From an uncultured Planctomycetia bacterium (GTDB lineage: Bacteria; Omnitrophota; Gorgyraeia; 2-02-FULL-51-18): a stretch of DNA of 64,000 nucleotides. Below, in pieces: positions 1,008 through 43,188 of the stretch. The stretch lies in assembly GCA_964606485.1 (NCBI GenBank), contig CAZSGP010000003.1, positions 66,481 through 130,480 on the forward strand, given 5' to 3'. Made by a program: the position numbers and the translations under genes. Position 1 is the stretch's first letter; the number at the start of each line of letters is the position of its first letter. The notes beneath the pieces were generated by a model. The model did no database searches. It worked only from the letters and a program-made list of their open reading frames with translations, and was not told the DNA's origin.

Positions 1008-1115
1008 ATGCCCAATAAGAAAAATGTTTTTAAATTCTGTACAACTAGACTTATTCAAACCATTTCTTACGGACTGGTTTTATGTTTGCTTGTCCAGGAT
1101 TTGGCCTGGGCCGCG
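1008..1115 (+). other. N-terminal Sec-type signal peptide or signal anchor of the giant protein
   Basis: MPNKKNVFKFCTTRLIQTISYGLVLCLLVQDLAWA|AP has a basic n-region, a ~15-aa hydrophobic core and an AxA-like AWA motif. Confidence 0.5.
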
Positions 1116-4100
1116 CCTGATTTAAAGTTAGGAGTTAAAGGTAAAGAGCAAAGTCTTAAGTGGGCTAAGACGCTTCTTCCCGAATTGCCAGAGTCGATTG
1201 TTAAGCTCGACGACGCTTGGAGGGGGACAGGGGGGTCCGGCCCCTCTGGCACCGTCATCTTAATCCAAGACGCCCATGCGAACCCTTCGGGGCAAATGAA
1301 TCTTGCGAAGACGTTGGACCTCATCTTTAGTCATGGTGGGGAGGGTGCTCAGGTTTTTCTTGAAGCCGGTTTCGGAGACGATTCTCTTTCCTTTTTAAGA
1401 AATCATGGCTCATTGTCCGAGCGCAAGCGAATCGCCTATAAATATTTATCTAAAGGTCTTCTAAACGGAGAAGAGTACTTGGATCTTACAAGCTCTCACA
1501 ACTTCGCTTTGTGGGGCGTGGAAGATAAGGGTCTTTATCTCAAGGCCCTTAAAAATTATAAGGTCGTAGCTCAAGACCGGTCTAAGTTCAAAGACTATCT
1601 CTCAAAGATTCAAACGACACTAGACATTCTAAAGCCGAGACTGTTAAATCCCGTTCTCTATAAGCTCGACCAAGATCGACAAAGCTATCTTAAAGATAAT
1701 CTTTCGCTTACGGATTATGCGGATACTTTACTTCGCGGAAATGACAGGAAGCGATACCCTAACCTTCAAAAAATAAGCTCTCTCAAGAGCTTAGAGCAAA
1801 GACTCTCCCAACAAAATATTTCACCCCAACACCAAAAGAGAATTGTCGAGCGACTACTTAAGCGCTCTAAGTCTCTGGATTATAAATCGATCCTTGAAGA
1901 AGTGAGGCGTTTGGAGAGCGATGCGTTTCAAGCGCTCACCCTGAATGCCGACGAACAAGCGCTTCTGGATGGTCAACGCTCGCTTGAATTCCTAAAGAAA
2001 CTTTTAAATCTAACCCTAACCCCGGAAGAATATGAAGAATACAAAAGCATTCGTCATCCTGAGCGCAGCGAAGGATCTTCTCTAAGCGAATCATCTAGAA
2101 AAGATTCTTCGGCCAGCGGGCCTCAGAATGACCCTGTAGCGCGTCTAACCGGTTTTCTCAATCAGAATATTATGATGCTCGGAAGCTACTACGAGCGAGC
2201 GCTTTTCCTGGAACCCGGATTTGACTCTATCGTGGCGAACGCCGAAAGTTTTTATGGCCTCACTCTTCAGAGAGACGAGGCCTTCGTCCAGAATATGTTA
2301 AAGAAATCGCCTCGAGCCCTTAGTATTTTAATAGCGGGTGGCTACCACACTCCTAATCTCAAGCGACTCTTGAGAGAAAAAAATATCGCTTATATCGTGC
2401 TGACTCCGCAAGTGACGCGGGAAACAAGCATCGCTAAGTATGAAAAGATTCTCTTAAATCAAAATCTCTTAACCCTAAACCCCGCGACTCTTAATATCAC
2501 TCAAAGCCACATGAGAATAGCTCCTCAAAGAAATATTGCGGGGAGCCGGCTGGTGGCAGAGGTGAAAGACTTGAACGAAACATTCAAGGAGGTTCTGCGT
2601 GATCGCAAAGAAGAGATTCGGGAAGCTAAAACTAGGATAGACGATAATTTGGCGGCCGAAATGATCGGTCAAATGCGAAGTGTTGTTGAAATTTTAGTGA
2701 AATCTCACCAGCTCGAAGCTGGAGGATTGATTGAAGAGAAGCTTGGCCGATTAAAAGAGTTAAAAAATTTAAACTCGAACGCAAAGGAGCAGATTGCACA
2801 ACTTTATGTTTTTTTGAAACGGCATTTTAGCTTGTCCCGTTTTCAGAGTTTTGTCACCGAACACGCTTTGCTTCCCGAGCAAAAAATTTCACCCTCAGTT
2901 GAACGCTACGGGTTAAATCTTGGCGATTATGCGGCGCGGTATACGAAAGCGATGAAAGTAAGTGGGATAAAAAAATTCAGCGGCGTGTACCGTGGAGAGT
3001 TGGCCGTGGTTTCTGGTTATCATTCGCTGATCAGCATCGAAGATCTGGACCGGCTTTCCGAGACGCTGGCCCGCAAAGGCTATGGTTTTGTTTTTGAGGA
3101 TGGCCTAACCTTTTCCCGGGCGGTGAATCCAAAAACTGAAAGTCCTGTAGAACTGCTTCAAATTCCCGTAACGGACTCCGAAACCGGGAAGACGATTACC
3201 CGGGTCGAGCTTGTTCTTTATGACAAGCCCGACGTTGAAGAGGAGCTTGGAAAGTACACCACGGCGATTCGCCAAAGACTTTATCCCCACCAATACTACA
3301 GAGAGACGATTCATCATCCCGATCTAAAAAGACATCAGGTGGATTTCGAGAAAAGTATTTCTGAAATCGCCAAAAGACACGGAATTAACGGACGGTTGAG
3401 TGACGATAAAATCAAAAAAATGGAGCTTTCCATCGCTCTGTCGCTGGTGGCCGAAACATTGTTTTTGAAATTGCCAAAGTCTCTGCAAAAGGAAGCCGAA
3501 GAGCTGGGTATACGCTCCGGTGGAGCGTATCCGGGCTTAGTCCATTTGCATAGCTCTATGAGAACCGCCGTGGAAACTCTTGCGAATCATGAAAAATCAG
3601 AAAAACTCATGAGCATAGACGTTGATAAGCGGACCGCAGAACAAATTGCTGATCTTAATGCGCTAGAGCAGAAACTGTCGCTCGAGAGCCAGAAAAATTT
3701 AGCGGGAAAAAACGCTTTTGTGGATAATTTCCCGCTTTTTATTTTAGACGACCATCTTTTTAAGGATATGGGGGAGCGACAACAAGAAGAATGGAAAGCC
3801 TTTTTTAGAAAAGTAGCCAAGTATTATGCTCAGATGCAATCGGATTATGAGAACATTTGGTCGGAAGATTCAACCAATCCGGCAGCGGCCATTATTGAGC
3901 CGAATGCAGTGTCGATTAATCTTTTACCTGGAAGAACAGAGGCGCAAATTTTGCGCGCACTCAAACAGAGTCATTCGCAAGAAGTATTTAGCCAAAGCGT
4001 TGATCTGGATGCAGACTGTCAATTATTTTTAAATGACATCCCCAAAATCATCACCCACAAAGGACTAGCGGAGATCAAGTTGCTACTCGTTGGCATGAAG

Positions 4101-7100
4101 CCTATTCTCCTTAGAGCAGAAAAGCGAGAGCTCTTTAAACGACTGGAAAAAGAAGTTGAGGGTGTTGAGGCACGTATACGCGCGATAGAGCGCTCGATTG
4201 GAGCAAGACTTTCAGAAGAACCCAAAGGCGCTTCTGTTGTTTGGACGCATGCCAAAGAGATGATGGACGCTATTCAAAAAAGTCCAATCGCACACAGCGG
4301 AAGAGATCAGATTAAACAATTAGCCAAAGATCTTAAAACGATCCCCAGTAAAGCGGAGGAAATTCGAAGGGAAACTAGAGAGTTGTCCGGAAAAATTCAG
4401 TTTAATAACGGAGCCGCCGAGAGATTTGATGAAATTTTGAATTCATCGCTCAAGAATGGAGAAGAAAGAGAGCAATTGGCGCGGCTTTATTGGTATCTCG
4501 ACCAAATGTTCACCGTTCGGGAAGCGCCAACAGTTCGCGTTCAGATTCAGTCCACTCAAAAGCAGTTTGGAAAGTATGCGCTGGATTATTATTTGGAATA
4601 TTTAAAAGAGGGAAATCCACAGGATGCCGCCGCGCTTAAAAGCAGGATAGCTGGAGCGGGATCTTATGCTCGGGAGGGGGTGGGCGTGACTGGTGACTCC
4701 GAAGATTTGCTTAACGATGATGAAGTTCAAAAAGCATCGCGAGTGCTGGATTTTGGAGGACTTGGATTTTTATTCGAAGACGGTCTGACCTTCGCCCGCA
4801 TTCTACCAACGACAACGAGCGCGACGGTAAAATCCTTGTTCATCTATACAAAGAAAAAGGGCGACGCCGCTATCCAAGTCAGGCCCGAGCTTTGGCTGTA
4901 CGCGATGCCGGCAGATCCAGCAACGAAGCTTTTGTTTTTTCAAGACGTCATGGGTGATTTGTATCCGCAGATCGCGCACAGTCCCTTGGTGAAGCGGGTT
5001 TTAGAACAAAAAGAGGCGCGTATTGATGATTATCCGCATCTACCCGGTTTTCTTCCTTCGAAGCTCATCCGCTCTTATTTTGACCTGACAAAGTCAGAAT
5101 CATCCCCTAAGGATTTATTTAAAAGACTGGAAAAGGCAAAAGCGCTTGAACCTCAAGCGCGACAATTAGCTCTTCATGAATTTTACGCTCACATTGGAAA
5201 GGCGCTTTATTTGACCGCAGGAAGCGAGTTTAAGGCTCGTTTCAAAGCAAAGCTTTTTTCGGGGGTTTTGCCGAATGGAGCGATTTATCTTAAAAACTAC
5301 GGGGCACAGCTTAAGAAGTACTACGCGCTCGTGGAGTCTGGCCGGGCCGATTATTGGTCGGAGCAATTGGCGGAGGATGAGCTTGCGGAGAATTTCTTCG
5401 GGGACGTCTTTGCATTTTATTGTTTAAACCAGCTTTTAAAAATACGCTCAATTTACCAGATGAGTGACGAAGACAGTTCTGTGGAATTGACGGTGTTTGT
5501 TAAAGAGTTTGTGGAAAGTCTTAAAGAAAAACATGCTCGAGGTTTGAATGCTTGGCAAATAGAGGATGAGGATGCCGCTAAGAAGATCGAATCGGTTCAG
5601 GCGATCATTCAAGAGCCCAATTGGGTCGGCAGCCCGAAGCATCTTTCAGACGAAACGACAGAGCCTTCTACGCTGAGAGCAGTTGCCAGTCATTTTATTC
5701 GCGAAACGGTTACAGAAGCTAAGAAGCTCTTTGAGAACCCCAATAGAACGGAAAATCAATTGGCGTGGATGATCGAAGGGTTGAGTATTGCCATAAGGGA
5801 TTTTACCCCCTTACTTGAAGATCGTAAGACGACTCGGCTAGCATCTTTAATTTTGGTCCTACCGGTTTACGCGAGGGCACTTTTTTACAGAGGAGATTAT
5901 TCCCAAATGCTCCGGTTTATACAATTAAACCTGCATTATTTGGCCCATTATCTGGAATCGATTGAAGAGAAAAATCTTGCTCAGGCAAATTTTGCGGTAA
6001 GCGTTCACGGGGATTTGCGTAGAACCGTTACCGACGCTATGGCTTTTTTGATCGTAAACGGAAAATACGAATTTGTAAAACCCCTGCAAGAGGCGCTCGA
6101 TAAACTGCGGTCACTCAAGCTCCCAGAGGGCGCTCGTTTAGCGGATTTAAAAGCCTCTTATATTGAATACATAAAAAGGAACAGCGAAGAAATAGACGCC
6201 GCCGTGCTTTACGTGAAGGATCCTTCAAAAGCGCTCAAAATCCAAGCGGAGTTAAGCTCGGCAATTGGTATCCTGAAAGGCGGATTTAAAGTAAAAGCGG
6301 GGGACTTTGTTGACGAGAAATTCTTAAAACTCGCCGGTCTTAAGGAATTTAACCGCTCTCAAAAGGAGCAGTTGGTCTGCCTCTATCTATTTATCAGGGA
6401 TGAATTCAAATACCCTAATTTAATTTCCTTTATCAGTAAGCCCGTGATTACTCCGGAGTCTAAAATTTCAGAATCCATGGAGCGGTACGGCATTCGAGCA
6501 AAGGATTATTATTTGCGTTATGCCAAAAATAAAATGGATACCGAAAATTTTGCCGATCATGAAGGGTTTCTAGATCAATTCATTGGTGTTTTTCGAGCAG
6601 AAGATGAGCGGGTGAGCGGGTACGAGCCTGTGATTACCAGAGAGGATCTGGATGCTCTTTCCGAGATCCTTGCGAAAAGAGGTTTTGGTTTTGTTTTTGA
6701 GGATGGACTCACCTATTCACGGACCATTAATCCTAATGCGTTGGGGCCTGTTCAAATGGTGAATCTGCCTATCAAAGACACCGTGTCCGGAAAGATCGTG
6801 GTCCGGCCTGAAATTGTTCTTTTTGATCGACCGCTCAGCGGCTCCGAGAAGATCAAGCTGTTTGATCGCCAGATGATAGAGTGGCTTTATCCGGACCTGG
6901 CTTTCTCAAGCGTATTTGGAGATCGTTTTCTTGGGCCGCACCAACAGAGCATTGAAGCGTGTATCGCGGCCATTCGCAAGTCCGGTCGAAACACCACCAT
7001 GGATGACGAGAAAATCAAAGGCGCCGCACAACTTGTGTTGTTGTCGATTATTTTTGACTCCCTGTACGAGCGCTTACCCGAAAATTTTATTGCCCGTATT

Positions 7101-10100
7101 GCCAGGATTGCGGCCACCAACAATGTAACGACTCCCGGACCCGCCTACTTAAGAATAATCGGCCGGCACGGAGTGGATGTTATTAATGATAGAAATGAGC
7201 GTGATTCACTTGGTGCTAAAGCGCCCGATCAAAGAACTCCGGATGAGAATCAGAAGATCGATGATCTGAGTTACAGCATCTCCAAGGAATCTATTAAAAG
7301 ACGGATTGGAAAAGTTTTCTTCTCTACCTTTGGCCCCTTGTATGTTTTGAATAAAAATATTCTTAGTCGTGATGGAGAGAGAGTGCCCGATGAAGTTAAA
7401 AAATTATTCGAAGATGTGTCTAAGTATTTTATTGGATTACACGATGATTACCACAATATCTGGGAAGTTCCGGAGGTGGACGCTAATAAACTTCTGCTAG
7501 AAGAACCAAATCCCATTTCAGCGACTTTGAAGCCGTACGCCTTGGAGATACAAGCGATCCGCGTGAACGAAGCTGTCGTGAATGACCCGAATTTTAAAGC
7601 ATCCAACCCCGAGAGTCATCGCGACACCGCGAATGCGTTTATCATGGACATGAAACACATTCGAACCGAAGAGGGATTGTCCCGGATGAGAAGCGTCCTG
7701 TTTGATTTGGTGGCGGCTCTTAAAACGGACAAGTTGAAAGATTTGGCCGCTCAAGCTGAAAGCGCCTTTGAAGAGGCTAAGAATAGAGTAGGTTTGGTGA
7801 CCGCCGCACGGCTTAGTATAGAAACTGGCAATCGCAATCAGGAGATTATTGATCTGTCCCGACAGGCTCTGAGAGTTTATGGTCTAAAAAATTTTGCAAC
7901 CATAATGATCGCTTCCGTTTCGGAGTCAACCCCAGCTTTAGACGAAAGCGGCGCACATCAATTAGACTTGCGTGATGCAACTGCTTTTGCAGAGCTTAGT
8001 CGATTCATTCACGAGGATTACAAAAAGGATTATTCTTATCAAGCGTTGTTCCAAAATTGGAAAGATCTGGAAAGTGTGCATCGCGGGGACGATTACAATG
8101 GGGTTTTTAAGACCCCCGCCGCCAAACAGGATGTATTTTCTTACTACATTTTTGGACGCGTAATCGCTGATGATAAAGATTTTGAAATCGCTTTGAATAA
8201 ACACGATGATGAGGACAGAATTCAGCATAGCGCTCATCGCGCCGCTAAAATTTTTACTGCCATCGACAAATTAGCCCGAGAGTCCGGAGGAGTATTTACA
8301 CTGGGCGAACTTCGAAAAGCCGTCTTTACCGATGTGGATTCAAAATATTTTGATCTGGATCTGGAGCTCATCGACCGCGCGGTACAAATTGCGACGGGTA
8401 GTTTTGAAGAAGGCGCTCGCCTCTCCTGCGAATACATGGAGATGCAAAGAATGGAATTCCTAGGGCGCATTGAAGAAAATGAGACTCGCCGGAAAAAATT
8501 GGCCGACGAACTGACTAAAAAAGCCAAGGCGTATGCGGATGAAATGGAGCGAATCCTCCAAGAGGCCAATTCGAAATTAAAATCTATTCCCAATTCGGAA
8601 GAAATTGTCCACGAAATCGTGCCAGTTATCAAAAAAACATTGAATGACGTGCTCACAAACCCCGCACTGGCGGACCCGGCCAAGTTTGAGCAGGCACTCG
8701 CAACTAACCTAGTCGACGGCATGAAAAACGGCCATCACGCGGGCATTGCAGGGGCGTTGGGGGCGGATTCTCTCAAAGATATCCAAGAGCTGCTTAGCAC
8801 AACCAAGCTAGCCGATGGGAAAAATTTTGTGCAAGCCGTCATGGACTGGCAGGAACAAAATCAAATCTTAACCAAGCTCAAAAAATACGCTGAATCAACA
8901 CTGGTTGAAGGGGTGAGTGTTCCGGAGCTTAAGAAAAAGCAAGGCTTTAAACCCGGTCAAACGGGGCAAGCGTCTGGCGCGCGATTGGCCGCTAAACAGG
9001 AAGTTGATTTTATTGATACGCTCAAAGAATTAAGTGACGACGAAAAGAAGCTTCTTAAGGAGCACTTTGTGGATATGGCGAGCCAAGAATCCAAGCCTTT
9101 GATTGGCCGGGCCGACGATGTGCGTAAAGTTGTATCCGCGCTCTCAAAGCCGAGCGGTTTTAAAAATAGCGTTCTTTTGGTCGGAAAAAAGGGCGTTGGT
9201 AAGTCGGCGCTGGTGCGCATGATTGCTAGATCCATTAAAGAAAAGAAAATTCCCGGCCCGCTTGAGCAGAGAAGAATTTATACCTTAAAAAAATCACTGG
9301 GGTCGACTCCAAGCGACATGAATGACGCGCTGGCTAAGCTTCTGCCGATTTTAGAAAAAACAAAAAATAAAATTATTATTTTCATCGACGAATTTCATGT
9401 GCTGACGCGCGGGATCAACAACACTACGGATTTTGCGGTGGCGGATACCTTGAAACCGTATCTTGAAGAGGGCCGCGTTACCATGATTGGTGCGACGACG
9501 ATTGCCGAGTGCAAGCGATTTATCGAGTCGGAGCCGGGCGGGGCATTTAAAGACCGTTTTGTCGAAGTGAGGCTGGAGGAAACAGACGCTGAAACCACCA
9601 AGGATATCTTGGACGGTTTAAAAGATTTTTATGAGGAAGAGTTTGGGATTCCCATTTCCGAAGGTGCCATTGAAATTGCCGTTGAGCTTTCGGAGCGCTT
9701 CTTGCCGGAGAAATCATTTCCCCGAAAAGCCGTTGACCTCTTGGAGAACACGCTGTCGCACGCTTCAAGTCTTGTGGCCCAGCGCAATTTGCAGATCGAC
9801 GATCTGACAAAGCAGTTGGAATTAAAAACTAAACGCTACATCGGCAACAAGAAAAAAGGTAAAAACGGAGACGACCGGGCGACGACCCAGCTTCACAATC
9901 AAATCATCACCTTGACTCAAGGCATTCTGAAGCTAAAAGCGGAGAGAGATGCTTTAAAAATCACCGAACTCAGTGATCAGGATGTCCGGCGCTACCTGGC
10001 CGATACCACCGGAATTGATTTGGCGCATTTGTCGCAAGGGGAGGCCCAGCGGATGCTGGTGGCCGAAGATGTAATTGGTCAAAAAATCATCGGCCAAGAG

Positions 10101-13100
10101 GCTGCGGTGGGTGCTATTTCCAAGGCGATTCGCCGCTCCCGCTCCGGTATGCGCGACCCCAAGCGTCCCATCGGCAGTTTTGTGCTAGCGGGTCCCACCG
10201 GCGTCGGAAAAACGGAGCTAGCCAAGGCTTTGGCCTTGTTTATGTTTGGCGATGAGTCCAAGATGAAACGCCTGGACATGAGCGAATACATGGAAAAGCA
10301 CAATGCTTCTCGAATGATTGGTTCGCCGCCGGGTTATATCGGGTTTGAAGCGGGCGGAGAGCTTACCGAATACGTCAAAAAAAATCCGTACGCGGTGATT
10401 TTATTCGACGAAATTGAAAAAGCTCATCCGGATGTATTTAATACTCTTTTGCAAATTTTGTCGGATGGCCGCCTGACGGACGGTAAAGGCGAAACCGTCG
10501 ATTTTAAAAATACAGTGATTATTCTCACATCTAATGTCGGCATGACTTCCATTGCGGATTATTTCAAAGGCTTCGAGGAATCCATTAAGCACGCTGAAAG
10601 CTCTGAGGGAATTGATCTAGCGATAAAAGGGATGAACGAAAGAATTGCCGAAGCAGTAAAGAAAGGAATTAACGGTGACCCCGCGCGTTTTAAACCGGAA
10701 TTTTTAAACCGCTTGGATGCAGTGATTCCGATGAGCATCTTGTCGCCTGAAAACGTAAAAGGTATTGCTCGTATCAAAGTGGATAAGGAAATCAGGGCCC
10801 GGCTCGAGAGCGAAAAATGGAGTGTCACTATTTTGCCGGAAGTTCACGAGCTCGTTGCAAAAGAGGGTTACGACCCCGTTTTCGGTGCCCGTCCGCTTAA
10901 CCGCGCCATTGACCGCATGATTTTAGATCCTTTAAGCACTCAAGTCTTGATGACGAAAGCTAAAGAGGGAGAAGAAGCGTCCGGAAACATCGTGATTTCA
11001 GCGATTGGCAAAGAAATTCATTTTAAAATTGATTTAAAGAAACAAGGTGTGATTCAAACCCTGCCTTATCCTGAGGAGCAAAAAGCCATTTATGAAGCAC
11101 TGTTTCAAGAAATCAATAACACTCTCGACAGTGCTGATAGCGCGCTTACGGAAGAAACGCTTAAAAAAATCCTTAAAGTTGATGATAGGGCCGGTGTTTT
11201 AAGCTCCCAAAGCGCCGACTACGGCGTTTACAAGCATAATCAGCCGCTCGCATTTGAAGCAGAAAAAGATAAATCAAAGCGCTCCAATCACAATGCTCCC
11301 AGTAAGGATTCGGGGGTTTTGAAAGCTCAGGAACTCATTTTAGCCGCACTGCAGAGCGAGCCTAAGGTAAACGCAGTAATGAAATTTATTCAATTATTTT
11401 CAAAATGGGCCAAAGAAAATAATGTCGACGCCGAGTTTATCAATCTGGAATGGACTGTTAAAGATAAGAAGCTCCTGATTCGCATTAAAAAAGCCGATAA
11501 AAATGTGATTAAAGATGACGAAGCGAAGACTCTAGTCGAATTCCTTCAGCATAATCCCAAAACCCAAGAAGAGGCTGACGAGATAGCCCGTAAAATTGCC
11601 GAAGAAAAAGGGATTACGGGCGGACAAGCCCTTTTGCGTCTCAAGGCGGCGTTTATTGCGCTCGGAGGAGAATCGACGTTTGGAACATTTGAAAACACTT
11701 ATTGGGCAAGCATTGTGTTAGATGAAGATCTTCAAAAGATGGCGGACGAGTCAAAGCTTAAAGCCGAGACAGCCTATAAGCTGAAGTTGTTGGAGGCATT
11801 ATTTGATTCTCTCCCTGAGCGGTCTATGAGTGATGATCCCAAAAAAACCAATCTCCCGATGGATCGATTTAAATTTTCTATTACCGATGAATTGTGTGGG
11901 TATAAAGGTTATAAAGCGCGCAAACCGTCCGAATCAGATCAAAATAATAAAACAGTTCTTATTTTAGTGAATCCAAAAACAGCGAACTGGAAAATATTTT
12001 TTCAGGATTTCCGATTATATTTAGATGAGTACTACCCCTATTACATGGCCCGCTATTCGGCTTTGGTCGAAAAACTTCAATTTGGAAAACTTGAAGAGCG
12101 GGAGTCGGTTGTTGTCGCGGCAGGTGCGACGGACCAAACTGTCAAAAATCAAGGGGTAGCACCGAAGTCTATTCCTCAGGAATACACGGACATGCTAAAA
12201 AACATTAATGATTTGTACCAATATTTTCCAACTAACATAGCGATTCGGCTTAAGGACAAGCCTCTAGTTGCGGCCATTGTGCTTTATCACGCCTTATTTA
12301 AAAATGATGAGCTTGAGTCTTTTATGAATCTCTGCGTAAATCAGCAAATCGATGAATTTAAAAGGCAGTTAAATGGTTTGCCGGTTATACTAAGTTTGAT
12401 TAATAGATACGATGCTACCAGTATTGAGAGCGGATCCTTGATAGCCCCTGGAGTTCTCCCGCAAATCTGCTTTGTCTCGGGCCTGGAGGAGGATGAGCGT
12501 GGTTCGTATAGAAGATTTTTCTTAGGAAGAACCGCTACAAAATTCTATTCAGGTGATAGTTCGGATTTGGCAACTCAATCAAAATTAGTTATCAACGTTT
12601 CTGAATTAAATGAGCTTCGCGAGAATCTAAAAAAAGCAAAGATCACCAGCCTCCAACGGTCGGCAGCGAAGAGCTCCTCATCTAAAGAATTAAGTAGTGT
12701 GTCCCCGGAATCTGCGGAATCTACCAAGGCCCAAGGAAAACTTTCAAGAAAAACTGTTGCAGAGCTGTTTAGACAGTTTGCCGATCAGGTTAATATCCGT
12801 GGGCCTATCGACAATGAATGTTTTGTCGAATTTAATAGGTCCAACTCGAATGAATTCGTCTTAGAAAAATATACCCAGCGCCGTCAGCAAAGGGCGCGCA
12901 TAAAAATCCAGTCGGAGAAGGGACGAATCCGGAAATTAGAAATTACGCTGTGGCCCGCAGATAAAGGACCTGTAAGAGCGCTTTATATCAACAGAGCCGT
13001 CAATCTAATCCTAGATGTTGTTTTTTTAGGTAAAACACAAGAAGTAATCGTGGTGGTTGATGATAGGGAGCTTGTTGGATTTTTAAGTGCCTATGAATCC

Positions 13101-16100
13101 AATGCAGATAAATCCGATGAATCCATGGAGACTTTAAACACTCGCGTGATCGCCAAATCCGACGCTTTGAAGCGCGCTCAGGAAGATCCTGATTTCGCTA
13201 AGGCATTGAAGTGGAGGAATAAAAAATCTGCTGCACCATCTAACCCACTCGAAGGAGATGTTAAAGCTATTCTTGAGCAAGCGCGTCAGGCCAATGAAAA
13301 TGAGTCGGGCGATCTTAGTGCTGTGAGGGGCGCCGACAATGAACTTGCCATTCGAGCCGAGGATTTTTCTTTGCTGACGACAAAGGATTTCGAAGAAATT
13401 TTAGATAGAGCTTTTTTAGTAGAAGAATCGACGCTTTCAGCTCGTGCTATCCGTTTGACGATAGGCGATTGGGCTAGAAGAAAAAACCAACTAGTTTATT
13501 TGCGCGAGCAGGAAGAGGGGGATGATTCAGTATCGGTATTCGAGCTAAAAATTGGGCAAGCGATCCAGGCGAGCGAATTGATGAAGTGGCTACTGGAGCA
13601 GGACCTTCCGACGGATAACCCCGAAGTCCAGGCCGCTTGGGGAAAAGCTAAAATTAAAATCCGCCGTTTGGCGATAGAGAAGATTACAGGAAGGCAGTCT
13701 GCCGCTTCGGCTCAAGATGTCAAAAATCAAGGACTGACACCGAATGCACCGAATGAATTTAAAGCGCAAGTCCTTCAAAGAGCGTTGGCGAATGTGCGCA
13801 ATAAAAATATTCGCCGCTTCAAGGGTGGAGCCGTAACCAAGGCGTCGGAATCTGAATCTACATTGGTTCTTTTAGACTTCCCCCAAGACGACGCTGATTA
13901 CGATCCCGATCTATTCAGTCCTAGAGTCGCTTCGAAACTGCACCCGGCGGCCATGGAGCTTGCTCGGGAGATTGTCGAGTATCTGAATGGACAGTCGGGC
14001 AACAAGCGCAAAGCCTATGTGAATCAAGACGTTGAGACCGTTTTTGAAGGGGATGTTGAGATTGAGAATGTCTCTGCCGTGGGCATTTCCTTTGAGCGAA
14101 TGACGCAAACTCTAGAAGAAGCCCAGGCTGGCACTGTCGAGCTTTTGCGCGTTGTCGAAGAGTTCCTATTAAAAAAACAAGCTTCGCTTTCAAGTGTCGG
14201 CGATAAATTAAGTAAGGTGTCCCCGGAATCTGCTACTTCAGGTTGGCAATTATTGAATCGTGAGGGGACTGAATATATCAAAATTTCTGTCCCAAAAAAT
14301 TTGGAAGATAGGTTGCTAGGGAAGCCGCTTTTACAAAAGCTAGTTTATCTTTTAGCAGTTGAAGATCTTGTGCAAGCGAAAGATTTTATAAAATCGAATC
14401 TTTCCAAAATTTTAGCAGAAATAAAGAAATTAAATGTCGGGGAAGGACGACTCTGGGCTACAGCCCCGTCCGGAACTGTATTGATTAACGATGGAGCGCC
14501 TACGGAAGGTGCGCTGATTATTCGATTGGAAGAATTTGAAACTACTTTCACAGAATCGAAACAGGAGAGTGCGCAGGTTATATTTAATTACCCTTTATTT
14601 GAAACTGACGTATATTTTAACGCCGATGAAAAAAACGGAAAAAATCTTCGGGAGGTTGGCGCGATAAAAACTCCTTTTGACCAGAGTCCTGTTTTGTGTT
14701 ATCCCGAAGAAATGATTGAGCTTCGCCGTAATCTGGAAGCGCAGAAAGCGAATTCGGGGGACACGAAACCTAATTCTGCAAAAGGCACGGGCGAATTAAG
14801 TAAGGTGTCCCCGGGTTCTAAAGAAAAAGAAAAAAATGTTTCTCAGTGGCAAAAATTTGTGGAAGAGTTGAAGACTAGCGAATCTGCCGCCCCCATCCCC
14901 CCAGCCTCGGCGGACAAGTCAGCTCAAACTGTCAAAAATCAAGCACTGACACCGAATATAACTAAAATTATCTCCCAGTTAGAATCTAAATTAAGTGATG
15001 ACAATTGGGCTGTCTGTCTAGCCGCCGCCACAGCACTCGGACCTATCTACCAAGCTCTCTTCACTCAAGGTAAGATGTCCTTAGAAACCCTAGAATCTAA
15101 ATTAAGAGATAACAATTGGGCTGTCCGTCAAGCCGCCGCCATAGCACTCGGACCTATCTACCAAACTCTCATCACTCAAGGCAAAAAAGTCTCCTTAGAA
15201 ACCTTAGAATCTAAATTAAGCGATTACGAGCGGGATGCCGCCGCCACAGTACTTGGATTTATCTACCAAACTCTCATCACTCAAGGCAAAAAAGTCTTTT
15301 TAAAAACCCTAGAATCTAAATTAATGGATCGCGATGGGACTGTCCGTCGAGCCTCCGTCACAGCACTCGGATCCATCTACCAAACTCTCTTCACTGAAGG
15401 CAAGATATCCTTAGAAACCCTAGATTCTAAATTAATGGATCGCAATGGGACTGTCCGTCAAGCCGCCGCCACAGCACTCGGACCTATCTACCAAGCTCTC
15501 TTCACTCAAGGTAAGATGTCCTTAGAAACCCTAGAATCTAAATTAAGAGATAACAATTGGGCTGTCCGTCAAGCCGCCGCCATAGCACTCGGACCTATCT
15601 ACCAAACTCTCATCACTCAAGGCAAAAAAGTCTCCCTAAAAACCCTAGAATCTAAATTAAGTGATGGCACTTGGACTGTCCAACAAGCCGCCGTCATAGC
15701 ACTCGGACCTATCTACCAAACTCTCTTCACTCAAGGCAAGATGTCCTTAAAAACCCTAGATTCTAAATTAATGGATCGCAATGGGACTGTCCGTCAAGCC
15801 TCCGTCATAGCACTCGGACCTATCTACCAAACTCTCTTCACTGAAGGCAAGATATCCTTAGAAGCCCTAGAATCTAAATTAAGTGATGACGATGAGGCTG
15901 TCCGCCAAGCCGCCGTCACGGCCTTGGGATCTGTCGCGCTATCAATGATTGTAGCGCAGGAGGCAAAACCCGCCGCGCCCGTCCCCACAGCCTCTGCGGA
16001 CAAGAAGGCTCAAAATATCAAAAGAGAATTAAAAAGCGCGTCCCCGAAATCAAAACTTCAAGAGGAGATGGAAGTGGTTGGCGAATATATTCAAAAGCTA

Positions 16101-18974
16101 CGGACAAATTCAGTAGAAGTGAAACCTGATCGCGCATCACAAGTTTCCATCACCCCAAAAACACAACAAGAGTTTGTGGATCAGCTAAAAGCCAGTGTGA
16201 TGAGCGACCCTAGGCTGGGCGAGGTGGAGGATGAACCCACGATTAGCGTTTCTAATGGGGTTGTGACCGTTCAAAAAGAAGTGGCGGGTAACTTCGATGA
16301 GATTCTCGATAGGCAAATGAAAGTGGCTTATGACGAGGGGGGAATTGTCACAGAAGTTGAGGTTGAGGACGTAAATTTATTTAATCCAAGGGATTGGACT
16401 GAGGGCAATGTTATTGATGTTGGTTTCCTTGCCGAGGGTCAGTGTTTGGTTGTAGTGGTTAAAGATGAGTCGCTCAGGTATTTCATGGATGAATTTCAGG
16501 ACGATATTACAGCGATAGCGAATTTAGGATTCAACTACGAAATAATCTCTCTTTCAGAAGCCATTCGAAGATGCGAAGAGCTTGGCTCAATTTTCAAGTT
16601 TACCGATATTACGAATTCAGACGACACAAAACCTAAGTCTGGGGTCGGCAAAGAATTAAGTAATGTGTCCCTGGAATCTGCAGTAAATTCCGTGCCTACG
16701 GTTTTCCGGCGACCAAATAATGTAGAGCTTGAGAGCGCGCAAGAAGCAGTTAGATTACTCAAAGCGCTAATCCAGTCAGGCACTTTTATTCGCATTGCGT
16801 ATCGATTTATGGATGGAGATGAAGATGTTTCCCGTAGCGTGATCAAGGTGAAAAATGACCAGGACAAATGGCTGCTGGTTCAATACAAGCCGGACCAGGA
16901 TCGCGACGGCTGGCAGCTATTTGATTTGGAAAAAATTTATCAAGACGGCGGATTTATGTACTGGAGCGCAACTTCGCAAGGATTGATCATTTCCAATACA
17001 AGAGACTATTTAGACGACTACCAAAACATAGTCCCTAGAGTATCGTCAGAAATTGCATTGGCTGATTATAAAGGTCTGCGTGCTAACTCAGGGGACACGA
17101 AACCTAATTCTGCAAAAGGCACGGGCGAATTAAGTAAGGTGTTCCCGGGTTCTACTGAGAAGGCGCGGGAATGGCTTGATAAAATTGATACTTGGTTGGT
17201 GCAGACTGAGAACTCAGATCAGATCGATCAATCGATTCGATATGTGGTGGAAGAAGATTCGATTATTAGTATGGGGTTCGGACTGGGTTTTAATGCAGGA
17301 ATGACAATGCCTCGAGTGTTCTCCATAGCCGTCAATTTTGAAAAGGTGAATTGGGAGCAATTATTTAGCGCGATCGAAGACCATGTTTTAGATGAGTATG
17401 GAGACAAAGCAGCTTTTAATTGGCGGAAATTTGTAGAAGAGCTGAAGTCATCCACCGGCGCACGGCTTTCCGAGGAAGAAGAAAAGGTTCGAAAAATTAA
17501 TTTAGCCGGCCAAGCCCCGCGGACAATGGGCCTCAAAAACTTTGCTAGCCTCATGATTTTACCGCTCTATCATGCGGAGCTTGCTCCAGAAGGCGAGATT
17601 ACGGGAGACAAAATTCATAAGGCATATGCGCGGGATTTTGCCTACGAAACTATTTATGACCGGTGGAAGGGCTCGGAGCTGATGCACGGCAATGACGATT
17701 ACAATCGAGCGCTTCCCAGCAAAGAAGAAAAAAGAAAAATGCTGTCTTATTATCTTTTTGGGAAATTTATCATCGGAGAAAAAGGTCTGGAGGCCGCTCT
17801 AAACTACAGAGACCGCGAGAGTGAAATCGAATACAGTGCCATGGTTGCTCCTAAAATTTTCAAGGCGATTGCCGATCTTACGCAGGATCGAGCGGGGAGC
17901 TTTACGATAAATGATGTTCGCAAACGACTTGTCGCTCAAAAAGAAGACGGGGAGCATTTCGAGTTGTACTTAACCCTGATTGACCGGGCAGTGGATATTG
18001 CGGAAAACCGGTTTGAGGAAAACGGTGCGCGGTTGGCTCAGGTCTATGTTCGATTCGCGGCGAGCGTGTATCAAGCACAGAAAAAAGACGGTGAGATCGC
18101 GGTGGGACAACACCGCTTTGAAATTCAGTTTAACGCTAAAAGTGGAGAGCTTCTTCTTATTGATAAGCGTTCCGGAAATTTTGAAAAAATTCCAATGAGA
18201 AATCCGGCGCTGTGGAATCCAAAATCAGGCGAGTTTCAAGTAGAGGCGTCGTTAGCGGATCTTCAGATAGCGCTGCATGCGGCTCAACGCGGAAATCGAT
18301 TTGTGATGGAGAGTTTACCGGCCGAAATATTAAATTCTTCTACAAAGACCTTGATTGAGCTCGGGGTGGATCATTTGCTGGCGGACCCTTCTCAGAGACC
18401 GCTTCTTGCGGCGGCGCTTAAAAGAATTTCCGATTCGCCACTCGCTAAAAATTCTAAAATTGTTTTAAAGTCTATCGGTAATGATATTCGGGTGAGTGAG
18501 CTTCTGGAAAATATCCCCAATAAAGACAAATGGATTGTTGGCTCGTACGAGGAGCTCGATCCGGAATATCGTTTGAACGCGCAGAGAGTCCAGGTGGGAG
18601 AGCTGGGTTGTAACGATGGGTTGCTTATTAAAAACGTCCGCTTTTTGCCGACCCAAAAAGCAACAAGCGGCGATATTTTTAATTACGAAGGTGTCCTTCA
18701 GGCAGCCCTTTTAGAAGGAAAAATTTCATCAGATGTTTTAAAAAATGCGACCCATTCGGAGTCCCAAGCCCTTATTCACGCATTTGAAGAGCTGCTTGGA
18801 CGAACGATTCCTCTCGAGCAATACGGCGCGTTTATCCAGGTGATTACGGGCGTTGAAAAAGTCGATCCCAAAGCGGCACTGGCTTTCACTGTGGCTGCGG
18901 CGTTTCATTTGAAGATCCAACAGAGAGTGGCCGGCGCGCGTCTAGCGCGTTTGATGGCCGAGCGGGCCGCTTAA
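1008..18974 (+). CDS. giant multidomain protein (5,988 aa): signal peptide, three paralogous modules, embedded ClpB/ClpC-like double AAA+ ATPase, HEAT-like repeat array; overall function unknown
   Basis: A single uninterrupted ORF of 17,967 nt. An open frame this long cannot arise by chance, and internal conserved domains confirm the frame throughout. Confidence 0.9.
   Translation: [5988 protein letters not shown]
1240..2400 (+). other. possible TraB/GumN/Tiki-superfamily-like region of the giant protein
   Basis: [13 protein letters not shown] near the start and [26 protein letters not shown] near the end resemble the GTxH...GxxHL...G(Y/F)xV motif pair of the TraB/GumN family, separated by ~360 aa. 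This is a motif-level match only. Confidence 0.25.
2770..8000 (+). repeat. three tandem paralogous protein modules (A1 ~2770-4450, A2 ~4450-6340, A3 ~6340-7870) inside the giant ORF
   Basis: Each module holds ...QLY(V/W/L)(F/Y)L...ERYG(L/I)...DYY(L/A)(R/E)Y...[14 protein letters not shown] at 3079-3110, [13 protein letters not shown] at 4760-4790 and [14 protein letters not shown] at 6681-6712, and further on KYYA...DYxNIWSE...EPN. DNA identity is only local: 20 nt are identical at 3085 and 6687. Confidence 0.6.
7870..8430 (+). repeat. module B, copy 1 (GLKNFA...DDYN...SYYIFG...LIDRAVQIA...FEEGARL)
   Basis: Paralogous to 17525-18040, where the same ordered motif string reads [10 protein letters not shown]...DDYN...SYYLFG...LIDRAVDIA...FEENGARL. 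Confidence 0.55.
9000..10950 (+). other. embedded Hsp100 (ClpB/ClpC-type) tandem AAA+ ATPase unit within the giant protein (aa ~2665-3315)
   Basis: D1 reads [11 protein letters not shown]...[10 protein letters not shown] (Walker A, 9183-9212)...IIFIDEFHV (Walker B)...IGATT...DRF. The short coiled-coil linker is followed by D2, [48 protein letters not shown] (10192-10221)...[17 protein letters not shown]...[46 protein letters not shown]...GARPLNRAI, which is about 70% identical to ClpB D2 by eye. Confidence 0.85.
14979..15935 (+). repeat. 9 tandem HEAT/PBS-lyase-like repeats (37-40 aa each; LESKL-D--W-VRQAAA-ALGPIYQ-L-TQGK-SLET)
   Basis: Tandem 111-120-nt coding repeats. The block 15020-15192 recurs almost exactly at 15461-15633, an offset of 441 nt spanning four units. 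Confidence 0.7.
17525..18040 (+). repeat. module B, copy 2
   Basis: See the first module B copy at 7870-8430. Confidence 0.55.
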
Positions 18975-42639: not shown

Positions 42640-43188
42640 ATGAATCTCCCTAGCCAAATTACGCTTTTACGAATTTTGCTTGTTCCGGTGTTTATTGGTC
42701 TTTTAATTTATAGCTCCGGAAACCCTCATTTTTATCATGCGGCGGTCGCCGTTTTTTTGGTGAGTTGTCTGACCGATGCGCTTGATGGATACTTGGCTCG
42801 CCGCCTCGGACAAACTAGCACGTTTGGTCGCATCATAGATCCACTCGCAGATAAAATACTGCTACTGAGTGGCTTTCTCTGTTTGTCTCTTATGGAAAAC
42901 TTGCCGCCGGGCGTTCACATTCCGGGATGGGTGACGATCGCGGTGATTGCTCGTGATGCTGTGATCCTGATCGGTGCCATCGTAATTTATTTGGTTCGCG
43001 GAAAAATAGATCCAGAACCCATGCTGATTGGAAAAATCACTACTTTTGTGCAGATGGCGACTATTGTGCTGGTTCTCTTTAGAGTGCCCGAACCCATTAA
43101 AGTGTTATTATTTTACGGTACTTTTATTTTAACTTTTAGCTCAGGCGTTATTTACATTAATCATGGGAGCAGGGAGTTTCAAGCGTGA
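42640..43188 (+). CDS. pgsA: CDP-diacylglycerol--glycerol-3-phosphate 3-phosphatidyltransferase (second CDP-alcohol phosphatidyltransferase paralogue)
   Basis: ITLLRILLVPVF...CLTDALDGYLARRLGQTSTFGRIIDPLADK. Confidence 0.75.
   Translation: MNLPSQITLLRILLVPVFIGLLIYSSGNPHFYHAAVAVFLVSCLTDALDGYLARRLGQTSTFGRIIDPLADKILLLSGFLCLSLMENLPPGVHIPGWVTIAVIARDAVILIGAIVIYLVRGKIDPEPMLIGKITTFVQMATIVLVLFRVPEPIKVLLFYGTFILTFSSGVIYINHGSREFQA

Follow-up and report, generated by a model that had tools for sequence, protein, structure and literature searches.

The subject of this study is a single very large gene in a 64,000-nucleotide (nt) stretch of DNA from an uncultured bacterium of the phylum Omnitrophota, deposited as a Planctomycetia bacterium (assembly GCA_964606485.1, contig CAZSGP010000003.1, positions 66,481 to 130,480 of the forward strand). 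The whole stretch is referred to as the window. The protein encoded by this gene, hereafter the giant, had been described in an earlier reading of the DNA letters (the sequence-only reading) as a mosaic in which an exported leader is combined with repeated modules, an unfoldase and protein-interaction repeats. Here we report that the giant is a member of a very large Omnitrophota family, for which we use the term 'capped modular proteins'. A conserved N-terminal domain (N-cap) and a conserved C-terminal domain (C-cap) enclose variable cargo modules, and a short recurring motif, the junction, lies at the module borders.

The giant gene and its locus

Along the open reading frame (ORF) and its product, with positions in nt of the window and in amino acids (aa) of the protein, we distinguish the following features:

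1008..18974, + strand: giant ORF, 5,988 aa plus stop codon, ATG start, one uninterrupted frame
1008..1112, + strand: signal-like or anchor-like N-terminal segment, aa 1-35, with basic n-region MPNKKNVFKFCTTR, hydrophobic core aa 15-33, then AWA-AP
1008..2552, + strand: N-cap, aa 1-515, TIKI/TraB/EreA/ChaN-fold hydrolase-like domain with invariant D88, H90, E119, R422 and H447
2049..2141, + strand: in-frame insert of ~93 nt, aa 348-378 of the N-cap, with inverted-repeat ends GTCATCCTGAG...CTCAGAATGAC
2541..2552, + strand: junction 1, GSRL, aa 512-515, end of the N-cap, in a linker (aa 493-520) with predicted local distance difference test (pLDDT) <50
2553..4211, + strand: module A1, aa 516-1068, paralogue of A2 and A3, ending at junction 2
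4200-4211, + strand: junction 2, GARL, end of A1
4212..6140, + strand: module A2, aa 1069-1711, paralogue of A1 and A3, ending at junction 3
6129-6140, + strand: junction 3, GARL, end of A2
6141..7814, + strand: module A3, aa 1712-2269, paralogue of A1 and A2, ending at junction 4
7803-7814, + strand: junction 4, AARL, end of A3
7815..8423, + strand: module B1, aa 2270-2472, ending at junction 5
8412-8423, + strand: junction 5, GARL, end of B1
8424..8987, + strand: module X, aa 2473-2660, short orphan with no significant Pfam match, ending at junction 6
8976-8987, + strand: junction 6, GARL, end of X
8988..11087, + strand: ClpC-like double AAA+ unfoldase unit, aa 2661-3360, opening a junction-free module of 2,827 aa
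11088..14927, + strand: orphan region, aa 3361-4640, with private linkers LSxVSPES and VKNQ
~14745-14807 and ~17079-17141, + strand: pair of 21-aa repeats
14928..16007, + strand: HEAT array of nine ~37-aa units (Pfam HEAT), with a DNA tandem array at 14980-15919
16008..17468, + strand: orphan region, aa 5001-5487, ending at junction 7
17457-17468, + strand: junction 7, GARL, end of the orphan region before B2
17469..18035, + strand: module B2, aa 5488-5676, ending at junction 8
18024-18035, + strand: junction 8, GARL, end of B2
18036..18944, + strand: C-cap, aa 5677-5979, family-conserved C-terminal domain, ending at junction 9
18933-18944, + strand: junction 9, GARL, end of the C-cap
18945..18971, + strand: nine-residue tail ARLMAERAA, family C-terminal signature

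The single ORF at 1008-18974 was found as previously described, with 0 internal stop codons across 17,964 nt. Concerning its genomic setting, annotation of the window ORFs confirms pgsA and pgpA on the 5' side and a convergent cinA whose end overlaps that of the giant ORF by 4 nt; recA, recX, alaS and hisDBHA lie beyond cinA. The 20 window ORFs tested are housekeeping genes only, including trpE, an M16 peptidase, PGM, lepA, lepB, plsY, gpsA, valS and uvrB. Among them no mobility genes were found near the giant ORF, and its two flanks, compared with each other, have no common word of ≥11 nt. The proposal of a resident chromosomal gene is supported by these core neighbours and by the lack of mobility genes and flanking repeats, but not by codon usage, which is atypical: the relative synonymous codon usage of the giant (1008-18971) correlates with that of the neighbour genes (20435-61248) at r = 0.66, as compared to 0.96 for the control, two halves of the neighbour set. 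The GC content of third codon positions (GC3) is 0.46 in the giant vs 0.53 in the neighbours, and the GC content across the giant's modules is fairly uniform (0.44-0.48). Another family gene, L082, is likewise atypical in codon usage (r = 0.58 vs 0.85), and in 3/3 family cases examined GC3 is below that of the neighbours.

The neighbours in the window and at two further family loci are unrelated housekeeping genes, and no secretion system, protease or chaperone partner recurred beside the family genes in these three contexts. A promoter previously proposed at 961-991 could not be substantiated; the hexamers TTGGAA and TACAAT are present with a spacer of 19 nt, and a consensus scan of 700-1200 returned 0 sites. 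The window also carries two CDP-alcohol phosphatidyltransferase genes, one at 43-468, which is truncated by the window start and adjoins pgpA, and one at 42640-43188 within a lepA-lepB-(pgsA-like)-plsY-gpsA cluster.

It is extremely unlikely that the ORF is an assembly chimera or a product of fused pseudogenes. The DNA array encoding the HEAT units (14980-15919, period 111 nt, 8.5 copies, 82% match) is open to copy-number mis-assembly, and the atypical codon usage might be read in the same sense. However, the repeat period is divisible by 3, the GC content is fairly uniform from module to module, the frame runs without a stop over its whole length, and the protein has a full N-cap start and an exact full C-cap and tail end, like ~67 other members of the family.

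The caps and the family

A search with aa 1-1070 of the giant retrieved 32 proteins, of which the named ones come from metagenome-assembled genomes (MAGs) of Omnitrophota/Omnitrophica. Their similarity to the giant is confined to its aa ~12-481; it nearly always lies at the start of the retrieved protein, and the sequence beyond it is unrelated. When a trimmed N-cap profile of 22 sequences was scored against 1.84 billion cluster representatives, it matched 10,323 of them at E<=1e-3 and 7,174 at E<=1e-30; the best 150 matches nearly all begin within the first ~30 residues of proteins of up to 7,482 aa. In species-representative genomes, a set that lacks the genome of the window, 153 family loci were confirmed, the best identity to the giant's N-cap being 41%. 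The survey of homologues shows that, among the 80 loci listed, almost all lie in MAGs labelled Omnitrophota or deposited as 'uncultured Planctomycetia', and that single MAGs carry at least 5-6 family paralogues per genome, some of them in tandem. NCBI names these proteins 'hypothetical protein' or borrows a name from a cargo domain. About half of the family-bearing genomes were submitted under the name 'uncultured Planctomycetia' (binchicken/SRP co-assemblies), and the labels Auribacterota and Eisenbacteria occur once each; the unusual labels may reflect labelling issues or a wider distribution in the Planctomycetes-Verrucomicrobia-Chlamydiae (PVC) group. Family genes are paired on the same contig and strand at L039/L080, L060/L063 and L009/L010.

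The giant belongs to this family by its N-cap (514 bits against the N-cap hidden Markov model, HMM), its C-cap (253 bits against the C-cap HMM), its nine junctions and its tail ARLMAERAA. Hence it is not a unique mosaic but one member of a family of more than 10,000 cluster representatives with N-cap and C-cap. The sequence-only reading was right in placing the architecture outside described families, since the matches of Pfam, NCBIfam and PADLOC are confined to the Clp and HEAT parts (those of PADLOC are all generic AAA+ matches), and no RTX, adhesin or CPD match was obtained that would assign the giant to a characterised giant adhesin or RTX family. Neither the curated libraries nor the literature searched contain a description of the N-cap family, the C-cap or the junction rule.

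At the start of the N-cap, aa 15-33 form the sole hydrophobic segment of the giant, the only scanning window with Kyte-Doolittle hydropathy (KD) >1.6. Such a leader segment is present in 143 of 163 family members and is preceded by a median net charge of +3. Judged by sequence, the leader and its positive-inside charge predict export of the N-cap. An AlphaFold2 (AF2) model of the N-cap, made with the family alignment (pLDDT 85, predicted template modelling score, pTM, 0.79), shows an alpha/beta core split by a ~260-aa helical insertion, and the core has the alpha/beta fold with parallel beta-sheet that is common to the TIKI superfamily (as ChaN, Ere, TraB, RRSP and PMT). D88, H90, E119, R422 and H447 are 100% invariant in 162-165 N-cap sequences drawn from clusters which are at most 50% identical to one another.

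Active TIKI members carry a constellation of two His and two Glu (2His/2Glu); in RRSP, an endopeptidase of the superfamily, it consists of E3900-x-H3902, E3930 and H4030 (PMC6254334). The N-cap resembles them in that D88-x-H90, E119 at 29 residues further on and H447 follow the order and spacing of this motif, with R422 in addition. It differs by an Asp instead of the first Glu, by the helical insertion between the core halves, and in that no curated sequence model matches it. The Pfam models TraB/GumN, Erythro_esteras and Cofac_haem_bdg gave no match to the N-cap even at E<=10, the N-cap family profile found no match among PDB sequences, and Pfam, NCBIfam and PADLOC leave the domain unrecognised. 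As neither curated models nor PDB sequences match, the N-cap is a new sequence family within the TIKI/TraB/EreA/ChaN superfamily. The 'possible TraB/GumN-like region' of the sequence-only reading is therefore right in fold and active site, but finds no support in Pfam. We know of no TIKI, TraB, PrgY, EreA or ChaN member that leads a modular giant protein. Tiki itself reportedly cleaves Wnt3a with Leu on the N-terminal and Ala on the C-terminal side of the bond, a point to which we give no weight here. Protease activity of the N-cap would follow only by analogy with its relatives, because esterases and a haem-binding protein have the same fold.

The ~93-nt insert in the N-cap encodes ...RHPERSEGSS...SGPQND... 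and looks like a small palindromic repeat element tolerated in frame. Its region is modelled as a low-confidence loop (pLDDT 56-62 over aa 341-360), and no second copy was found in the window. Homologues have comparable low-complexity inserts at the same and at other N-cap loops, e.g. ...VIARSEATKQS...SSPSAPRND...

At the other end of the chain, a jackhmmer search found the last 312 aa of the giant (5677-5988) homologous to the ends of ~67 family proteins, where the match lies nearly always within a few residues of the C-terminus. The C-terminal part of ~300 aa noted before is thus a distinct domain, the C-cap, which has a generic Rossmann-like fold (AF2 pLDDT 82 in the giant). Members without a C-cap may be fragments truncated at contig ends. 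The family ends in the signature ...[RK]-M-A-x-Q-[AS]-A, in which the last Ala is invariant, and QGAR[LM]A is often found nine residues before the C-terminus, likewise in the giant (...AGARLARLMAERAA). The ssrA-type degrons are C-terminal recognition tags ending in Ala-Ala; the near-invariant ...Q-[AS]-A-COOH end of the family resembles such tags, which is intriguing beside a Clp-type unfoldase.

Cargo modules, junctions and borders

Between the caps, the three paralogous modules and the pair B1 and B2 of the earlier description were recovered; A3 shares 31% identity with A1 and 24% with A2, and B1 and B2 share 43%. No homologue of A3 outside the giant was found among 5.8 billion proteins. Pfam searches at E<=1 to 10 on A1-A3, B1, X, the region following the Clp unit, the region preceding B2, B2 and the C-cap gave noise only, and PDB sequence and profile searches with A, B, the middle region and the region preceding B2 gave no match. 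Weak partial matches were obtained for the N-cap HMM (positions 228-300) in A1 at aa 850-921 and for the C-cap HMM (positions 78-145) in X at aa 2529-2600; both may just be compositional or low-complexity similarity.

The Hsp100 double AAA+ unit is recognised by four Pfam models above their cutoffs (AAA, AAA_lid_9, AAA_2 and ClpB_D2-small, aa ~2690-3325). Its nearest relatives among the matches listed are free-standing ClpC and ClpB proteins at 38-42% identity, and no orthologous giant is among these matches. Its best NCBIfam score is 508 bits, as compared to a ClpB cutoff of 1232, so that it stays below equivalog level (ClpB, ClpA, ClpV, ClpK, ClpG); a Clp_N domain gave no Pfam match in the giant. 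When the unit is aligned with ClpC and ClpB, both nucleotide-binding domains (NBDs) retain intact Walker A and B motifs, and the middle region is as long as in ClpC. The NBD1 pore loop KYRGEFE is deleted and the NBD2 pore loop GYIGF is intact. KGF stands at the position of the ClpP-docking loop VGF/LGF of ClpC, a loop which ClpB lacks; Lys at its first position is atypical. Further on, Pfam detects the nine-unit HEAT array above cutoffs (HEAT 106 bits, HEAT_2 91 bits; nine ~37-aa units at aa 4658-4990). Since the Clp unit is joined without a junction to ~2,100 aa including this array, it would form part of the largest predicted product, an unfoldase of 2,827 aa that carries its own scaffold. 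Short recurring linkers are present in aa 3700-5400 (LSxVSPES five times, VKNQ three times), and the 21-aa segment ANSGDTKPNSAKGTGELSKV at aa 4580-4600 recurs at aa 5358-5378 with 95% identity, ~780 aa apart. Sequence similarity of this kind suggests recent internal linker duplication inside the 2,827-aa module. All in all, a near-complete list of the architectural features reported by the sequence-only reading is present in the giant.

What that reading missed is the G[AS]RL-type junction. [GA][AS]RL occurs at nine sites of the giant, starting at aa 512, 1065, 1708, 2266, 2469, 2657, 5484, 5673 and 5976. GARL itself occurs seven times vs 0.18 expected, with a maximum of three in 2,000 shuffles, and is found 0 times in the 14,090 aa of the other window ORFs. 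The same motif emerges from the family as a whole: in an unbiased 4-mer ranking of its cargo (359,016 aa from 158 family proteins) GARM and GARL are the top two, enriched 35x and 32x, and GARL accounts for 526 sites in 110 proteins. Motif density is 1.98 per 1000 aa in cargo vs 0.18 in upstream ORFs of the same genomes, where 11/11 occurrences belong to long ORFs on the same strand that continue past the end of the flank. By contig coordinates, one of these ORFs (upstream of L080, rich in GARLA sites) is the tail of a tandem upstream family gene. The logo of 859 sites reads [AS]-G(81%)-A(92%)-R(100%)-L/M(86/14%)-A/S(73/16%), and the residues beside it are not conserved. Median values are 585 for the position of the first site and 252 aa for the spacing of sites. 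The ±5 residues around the motif are more polar (0.57-0.61 vs 0.49) and less hydrophobic (0.22 vs 0.32). The linkers formerly proposed as processing sites (LSxVSPES, VKNQ, GDTKP) occur 0-1 times in 164 family proteins, and the family-wide junction is [AS]GAR[LM][AS].

All nine sites of the giant fall on module borders, namely at the ends of the N-cap, A1, A2, A3, B1, X and the C-cap and on either side of B2. Duplicated units span from motif to motif, and GARL-2657 aligns with the ClpC linker between the N-domain and NBD1. Sites also flank recognisable cargo domains in paralogues:

P0004: DnaJ at 1131-1193, with the next site at 1198
P0079: PCMT at 3077-3276, with sites at 3024 and 3285
P0018: methyltransferase at 816-948, with sites at 558 and 1032

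Across the family, 521 homology blocks between different proteins were analysed with the C-cap left out. A motif is found no more than 15 aa from the block end in 36% of cases, as compared to 7% with cuts placed at random (at most 12% in any of 200 trials), and from the block start in 20% vs 7%; only 14% of blocks cross a motif vs 40% expected (minimum 31%). Therefore, as far as these sequence statistics go, the modules behave as exchangeable evolutionary units. At E<=1e-6 in BLAST, the giant's cargo has essentially nothing in common with 164 family proteins; only the two caps are common to them.

At the level of codons, every synonymous codon is found at every motif position, and junctions inside the giant differ at up to 5/12 nucleotides with the peptide kept, so that the constraint is mainly on the peptide. 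Nevertheless, family junctions are skewed toward GGC GCG CGG NTG GCG relative to the per-ORF background: GGC was observed 83 times vs 49 expected, GCG 77 vs 48, Arg codons ending in G 90 vs 45, and TTG 38 vs 18. Among Leu codons at the junctions of family loci L001-L080, TTG and CTG are over-represented and CTT and CTC under-represented. The skew hints at an additional nucleotide-level or ancestry component; possible reasons are Met/Leu toggling via ATG/TTG/CTG, a common ancestry of junctions carried along as their modules spread, or a role at the nucleotide level. A junction that serves primarily as DNA-level microhomology for in-frame cassette recombination among paralogues, with the peptide as a by-product, would fit this skew as well as the extreme turnover of cargo and the homology blocks ending at motifs. 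We regard it as very improbable, given that all synonymous codons are used, that the giant's junctions keep the same peptide while differing in nucleotides, and that 12-15 degenerate nucleotides are a poor recombination substrate. An internal Shine-Dalgarno (SD) sequence or start codon at the junctions was also considered and rejected for the giant, where 6/9 Leu codons are not NTG and no SD-like sequence is present.

Proposed processing of the chain and comparison with known systems

We give about an even chance to the reading that the giant is a polyprotein cut at its junctions by its own N-cap, akin to the autoprocessing of MARTX toxins. This reading is suggested by a short small-small-Arg-Leu/Met-small motif with free flanks, by its position in exposed linkers exactly at module borders, by its restriction to proteins led by an invariant-residue hydrolase domain with endopeptidase relatives, and by sites directly after the N-cap and near the C-terminus. 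A member would be laid out as a Sec-type signal-like segment, the N-cap, hypervariable cargo modules and the ~300-aa C-cap, each cargo module ending in an exposed [AS]-G-A-R-[L/M]-[A/S] junction. The N-cap would act as a leader endopeptidase recognising and cutting the junctions, most likely after L/M and before A/S; it would first free itself at GSRL-515 and then release the modules. From the giant, the products would be the N-cap, A1, A2, A3, B1, X, the 2,827-aa ClpC-like unfoldase-orphan/HEAT scaffold, B2 and the C-cap. The bond that would be cut and the cellular site of cleavage, like the role of the N-cap as the protease, are points that we infer. Of the roles considered in the sequence-only reading, a cell-surface or secreted machine on the one hand and a polyprotein on the other, the evidence favours the polyprotein, at sites other than the linkers then proposed.

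Several points weigh against self-processing. The main difficulty is the topology of enzyme and substrate, because the leader predicts export, yet the Clp ATPase and the paralogue cargo (kinase, radical SAM, PCMT, DnaJ and PfkB domains) are of ATP- or SAM-dependent cytoplasmic type; the paradox of an exported leader beside an ATP-dependent unfoldase, a combination already noted by the earlier reading, is real. Junction cleavage itself rests on inference, and a TIKI fold does not prove a protease, as esterases and a haem-binding protein belong to the same superfamily. No junction interrupts the 2,827-aa module of the giant, AF2 does not place the first junction in the N-cap active site, and the C-terminal GARL is modelled, at low confidence, in a helix. 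The strict motif is missing in 16/158 family proteins, which have only degenerate forms such as xSRM[AS]; no alternative motif was found in these 16 beyond degenerate xSRM/xARM variants. The codon skew described above belongs here as well.

Alternatively, another protease, encoded elsewhere, would cut the polyprotein, and the N-cap would have a different hydrolytic or binding role, e.g. as an esterase, an enzyme of lipid or cell-wall chemistry or a ChaN-like cofactor binder. EreC and ChaN are non-proteases of the superfamily, export is predicted for the N-cap while much of the cargo looks cytoplasmic, and in the AF2 model no junction is docked in the N-cap. We nonetheless judge a separate protease unlikely: N-cap and motif strictly co-occur, the motif being essentially missing from non-family ORFs of the same genomes, no conserved neighbouring protease is seen in the three contexts, and the invariant constellation agrees with that of the protease members. 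To an uncut single-chain scaffold we assign a similarly low probability. In that case GAR[LM][AS] would be a docking or regulatory linear motif for the N-cap, the C-cap or a partner, organising or anchoring the chain. Any recognition motif embedded in linkers would show the same border and exposure statistics, the terminal motif is modelled as helical, and uncleaved giant multi-domain proteins are common. On the other hand, a five-residue small-small-Arg-Leu/Met-small grammar with free flanks is typical of protease sites, sites occur 9 residues from the C-terminus and between N-cap and cargo, and invariant catalytic residues favour chemistry over binding.

Self-processing by the N-cap, if true of the family at large, would mean that a substantial share of the Omnitrophota proteome is made as signal-led polyproteins of dark-matter modules and ordinary enzymes, cut by a TIKI-fold leader protease at GAR[L/M]|[A/S]. 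We put this generalisation forward tentatively and with more doubt than the reading of the giant itself. Whether Omnitrophota giant proteins act as single chains or as cut pieces is explicitly an open question, and the junctions are the first concrete candidate cutting sites for them. The testable elements are the site [AS]GAR[LM][AS], the candidate enzyme N-cap and a family of more than 10,000 sequence clusters outside curated libraries. If true, genome annotation would change, because one ORF would give many products, and the junction rule would allow family giants to be split in silico into real products. Furthermore, there would be a new protease family and specificity in the TIKI superfamily, a mechanism by which modules are quickly shuffled while the frame for processing and export stays fixed, and a cellular counterpart of the viral polyprotein strategy.

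Viral polyproteins combine many units in one ORF with a short cleavage motif at the unit borders and a protease in the same chain. The giant resembles them in its many units, its short border motif and its candidate protease within the chain. It differs in that its family consists of cellular chromosomal genes with many paralogues per genome, and in that family cargo is hypervariable whereas viruses have a fixed set of replication modules. With ClpC-type Hsp100 proteins the giant has in common two AAA+ modules, a middle region of ClpC length and an intact NBD2 pore loop, and one of its loops aligns with their VGF. Unlike these, it lacks Clp_N and the NBD1 pore loop KYRGEFE, has KGF for VGF, scores far under the NCBIfam equivalog cutoffs and has its AAA+ unit within a 2,827-aa module that also contains a HEAT array.

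The giants described so far from Omnitrophota have at least 10-30 thousand aa (kaa), dockerin, C39, S8 or SecA-like domains and many transmembrane (TM) helices (10.1101/2023.11.21.568195; 10.64898/2026.06.07.730766). Cleavage by their C39 or S8 domains is suspected, with cleavage points unknown (West-Roberts et al. 2023, 10.1101/2023.11.21.568195), and a 'multi-enzyme' class of long Omnitrophota proteins with HEAT scaffolding has been described (2026 bioRxiv 10.64898/2026.06.07.730766). The present giant comes from the same phylum and is likewise a long multi-domain chain; a signal peptide is frequent among those giants. However, dockerin, C39, S8 and SecA-like domains are absent from its Pfam matches, and in contrast to Archaeovorin/Dockerin-type giants it has 5,988 aa instead of >30 kaa and one hydrophobic segment instead of many TM helices. 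'GARL', 'TraB', 'polyprotein' and a TIKI-like N-terminal domain are mentioned in neither of the two papers on Omnitrophota giants (10.1101/2023.11.21.568195; 10.64898/2026.06.07.730766), and no literature linking Omnitrophota with TIKI/TraB was found within the literature searched.

The cysteine protease domain (CPD) of MARTX toxins cuts after a P1 Leu, before P1' Ala/Ser, at disordered interdomain boundaries between conserved terminal regions (PMC3153235). A MARTX-like secreted multi-effector toxin, exported as a whole chain, delivered into a prey or host cell and processed there in the presence of ATP, would be a variant of location that is compatible with processing by the N-cap. The signal-like leader, the conserved ends around a variable centre, a Leu/small junction grammar resembling CPD sites and effector-like paralogue cargo (kinase, FHA, DnaJ, M23, HEAT) would fit such a toxin, as would the predatory or host-dependent lifestyle proposed for Omnitrophota. 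There are, however, no RTX repeats, CPD or type I secretion system (T1SS) neighbours, some paralogue cargo is housekeeping-like (6PGL, PfkB, DHODH, LspA, PCMT), no translocation domain is recognised and the C-cap is generic Rossmann-like. The toxin is thus rather unlikely, if somewhat less so than a separate protease or an uncut scaffold.

As a system, MARTX, with its variable effectors between conserved ends and CPD cleavage at Leu|Ala/Ser in linkers, is still the closest analogue of the giant. Both are very long chains with conserved ends around variable modules and with Leu plus small residue sites in exposed linkers, and the built-in protease that releases the modules of MARTX has a candidate counterpart in the giant. 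They differ in that searches of the whole protein with Pfam and NCBIfam and the neighbours in the window gave no RTX repeats, C80 CPD or T1SS context for the giant, and in that its candidate protease has a TIKI/EreA fold and is N-terminal. The motif of the giant's family is longer, with G-A-R ahead of Leu/Met, and phylum and cargo are others. Hence, by analogy, the resemblance of the capped modular proteins to MARTX would be one of function and not of membership.

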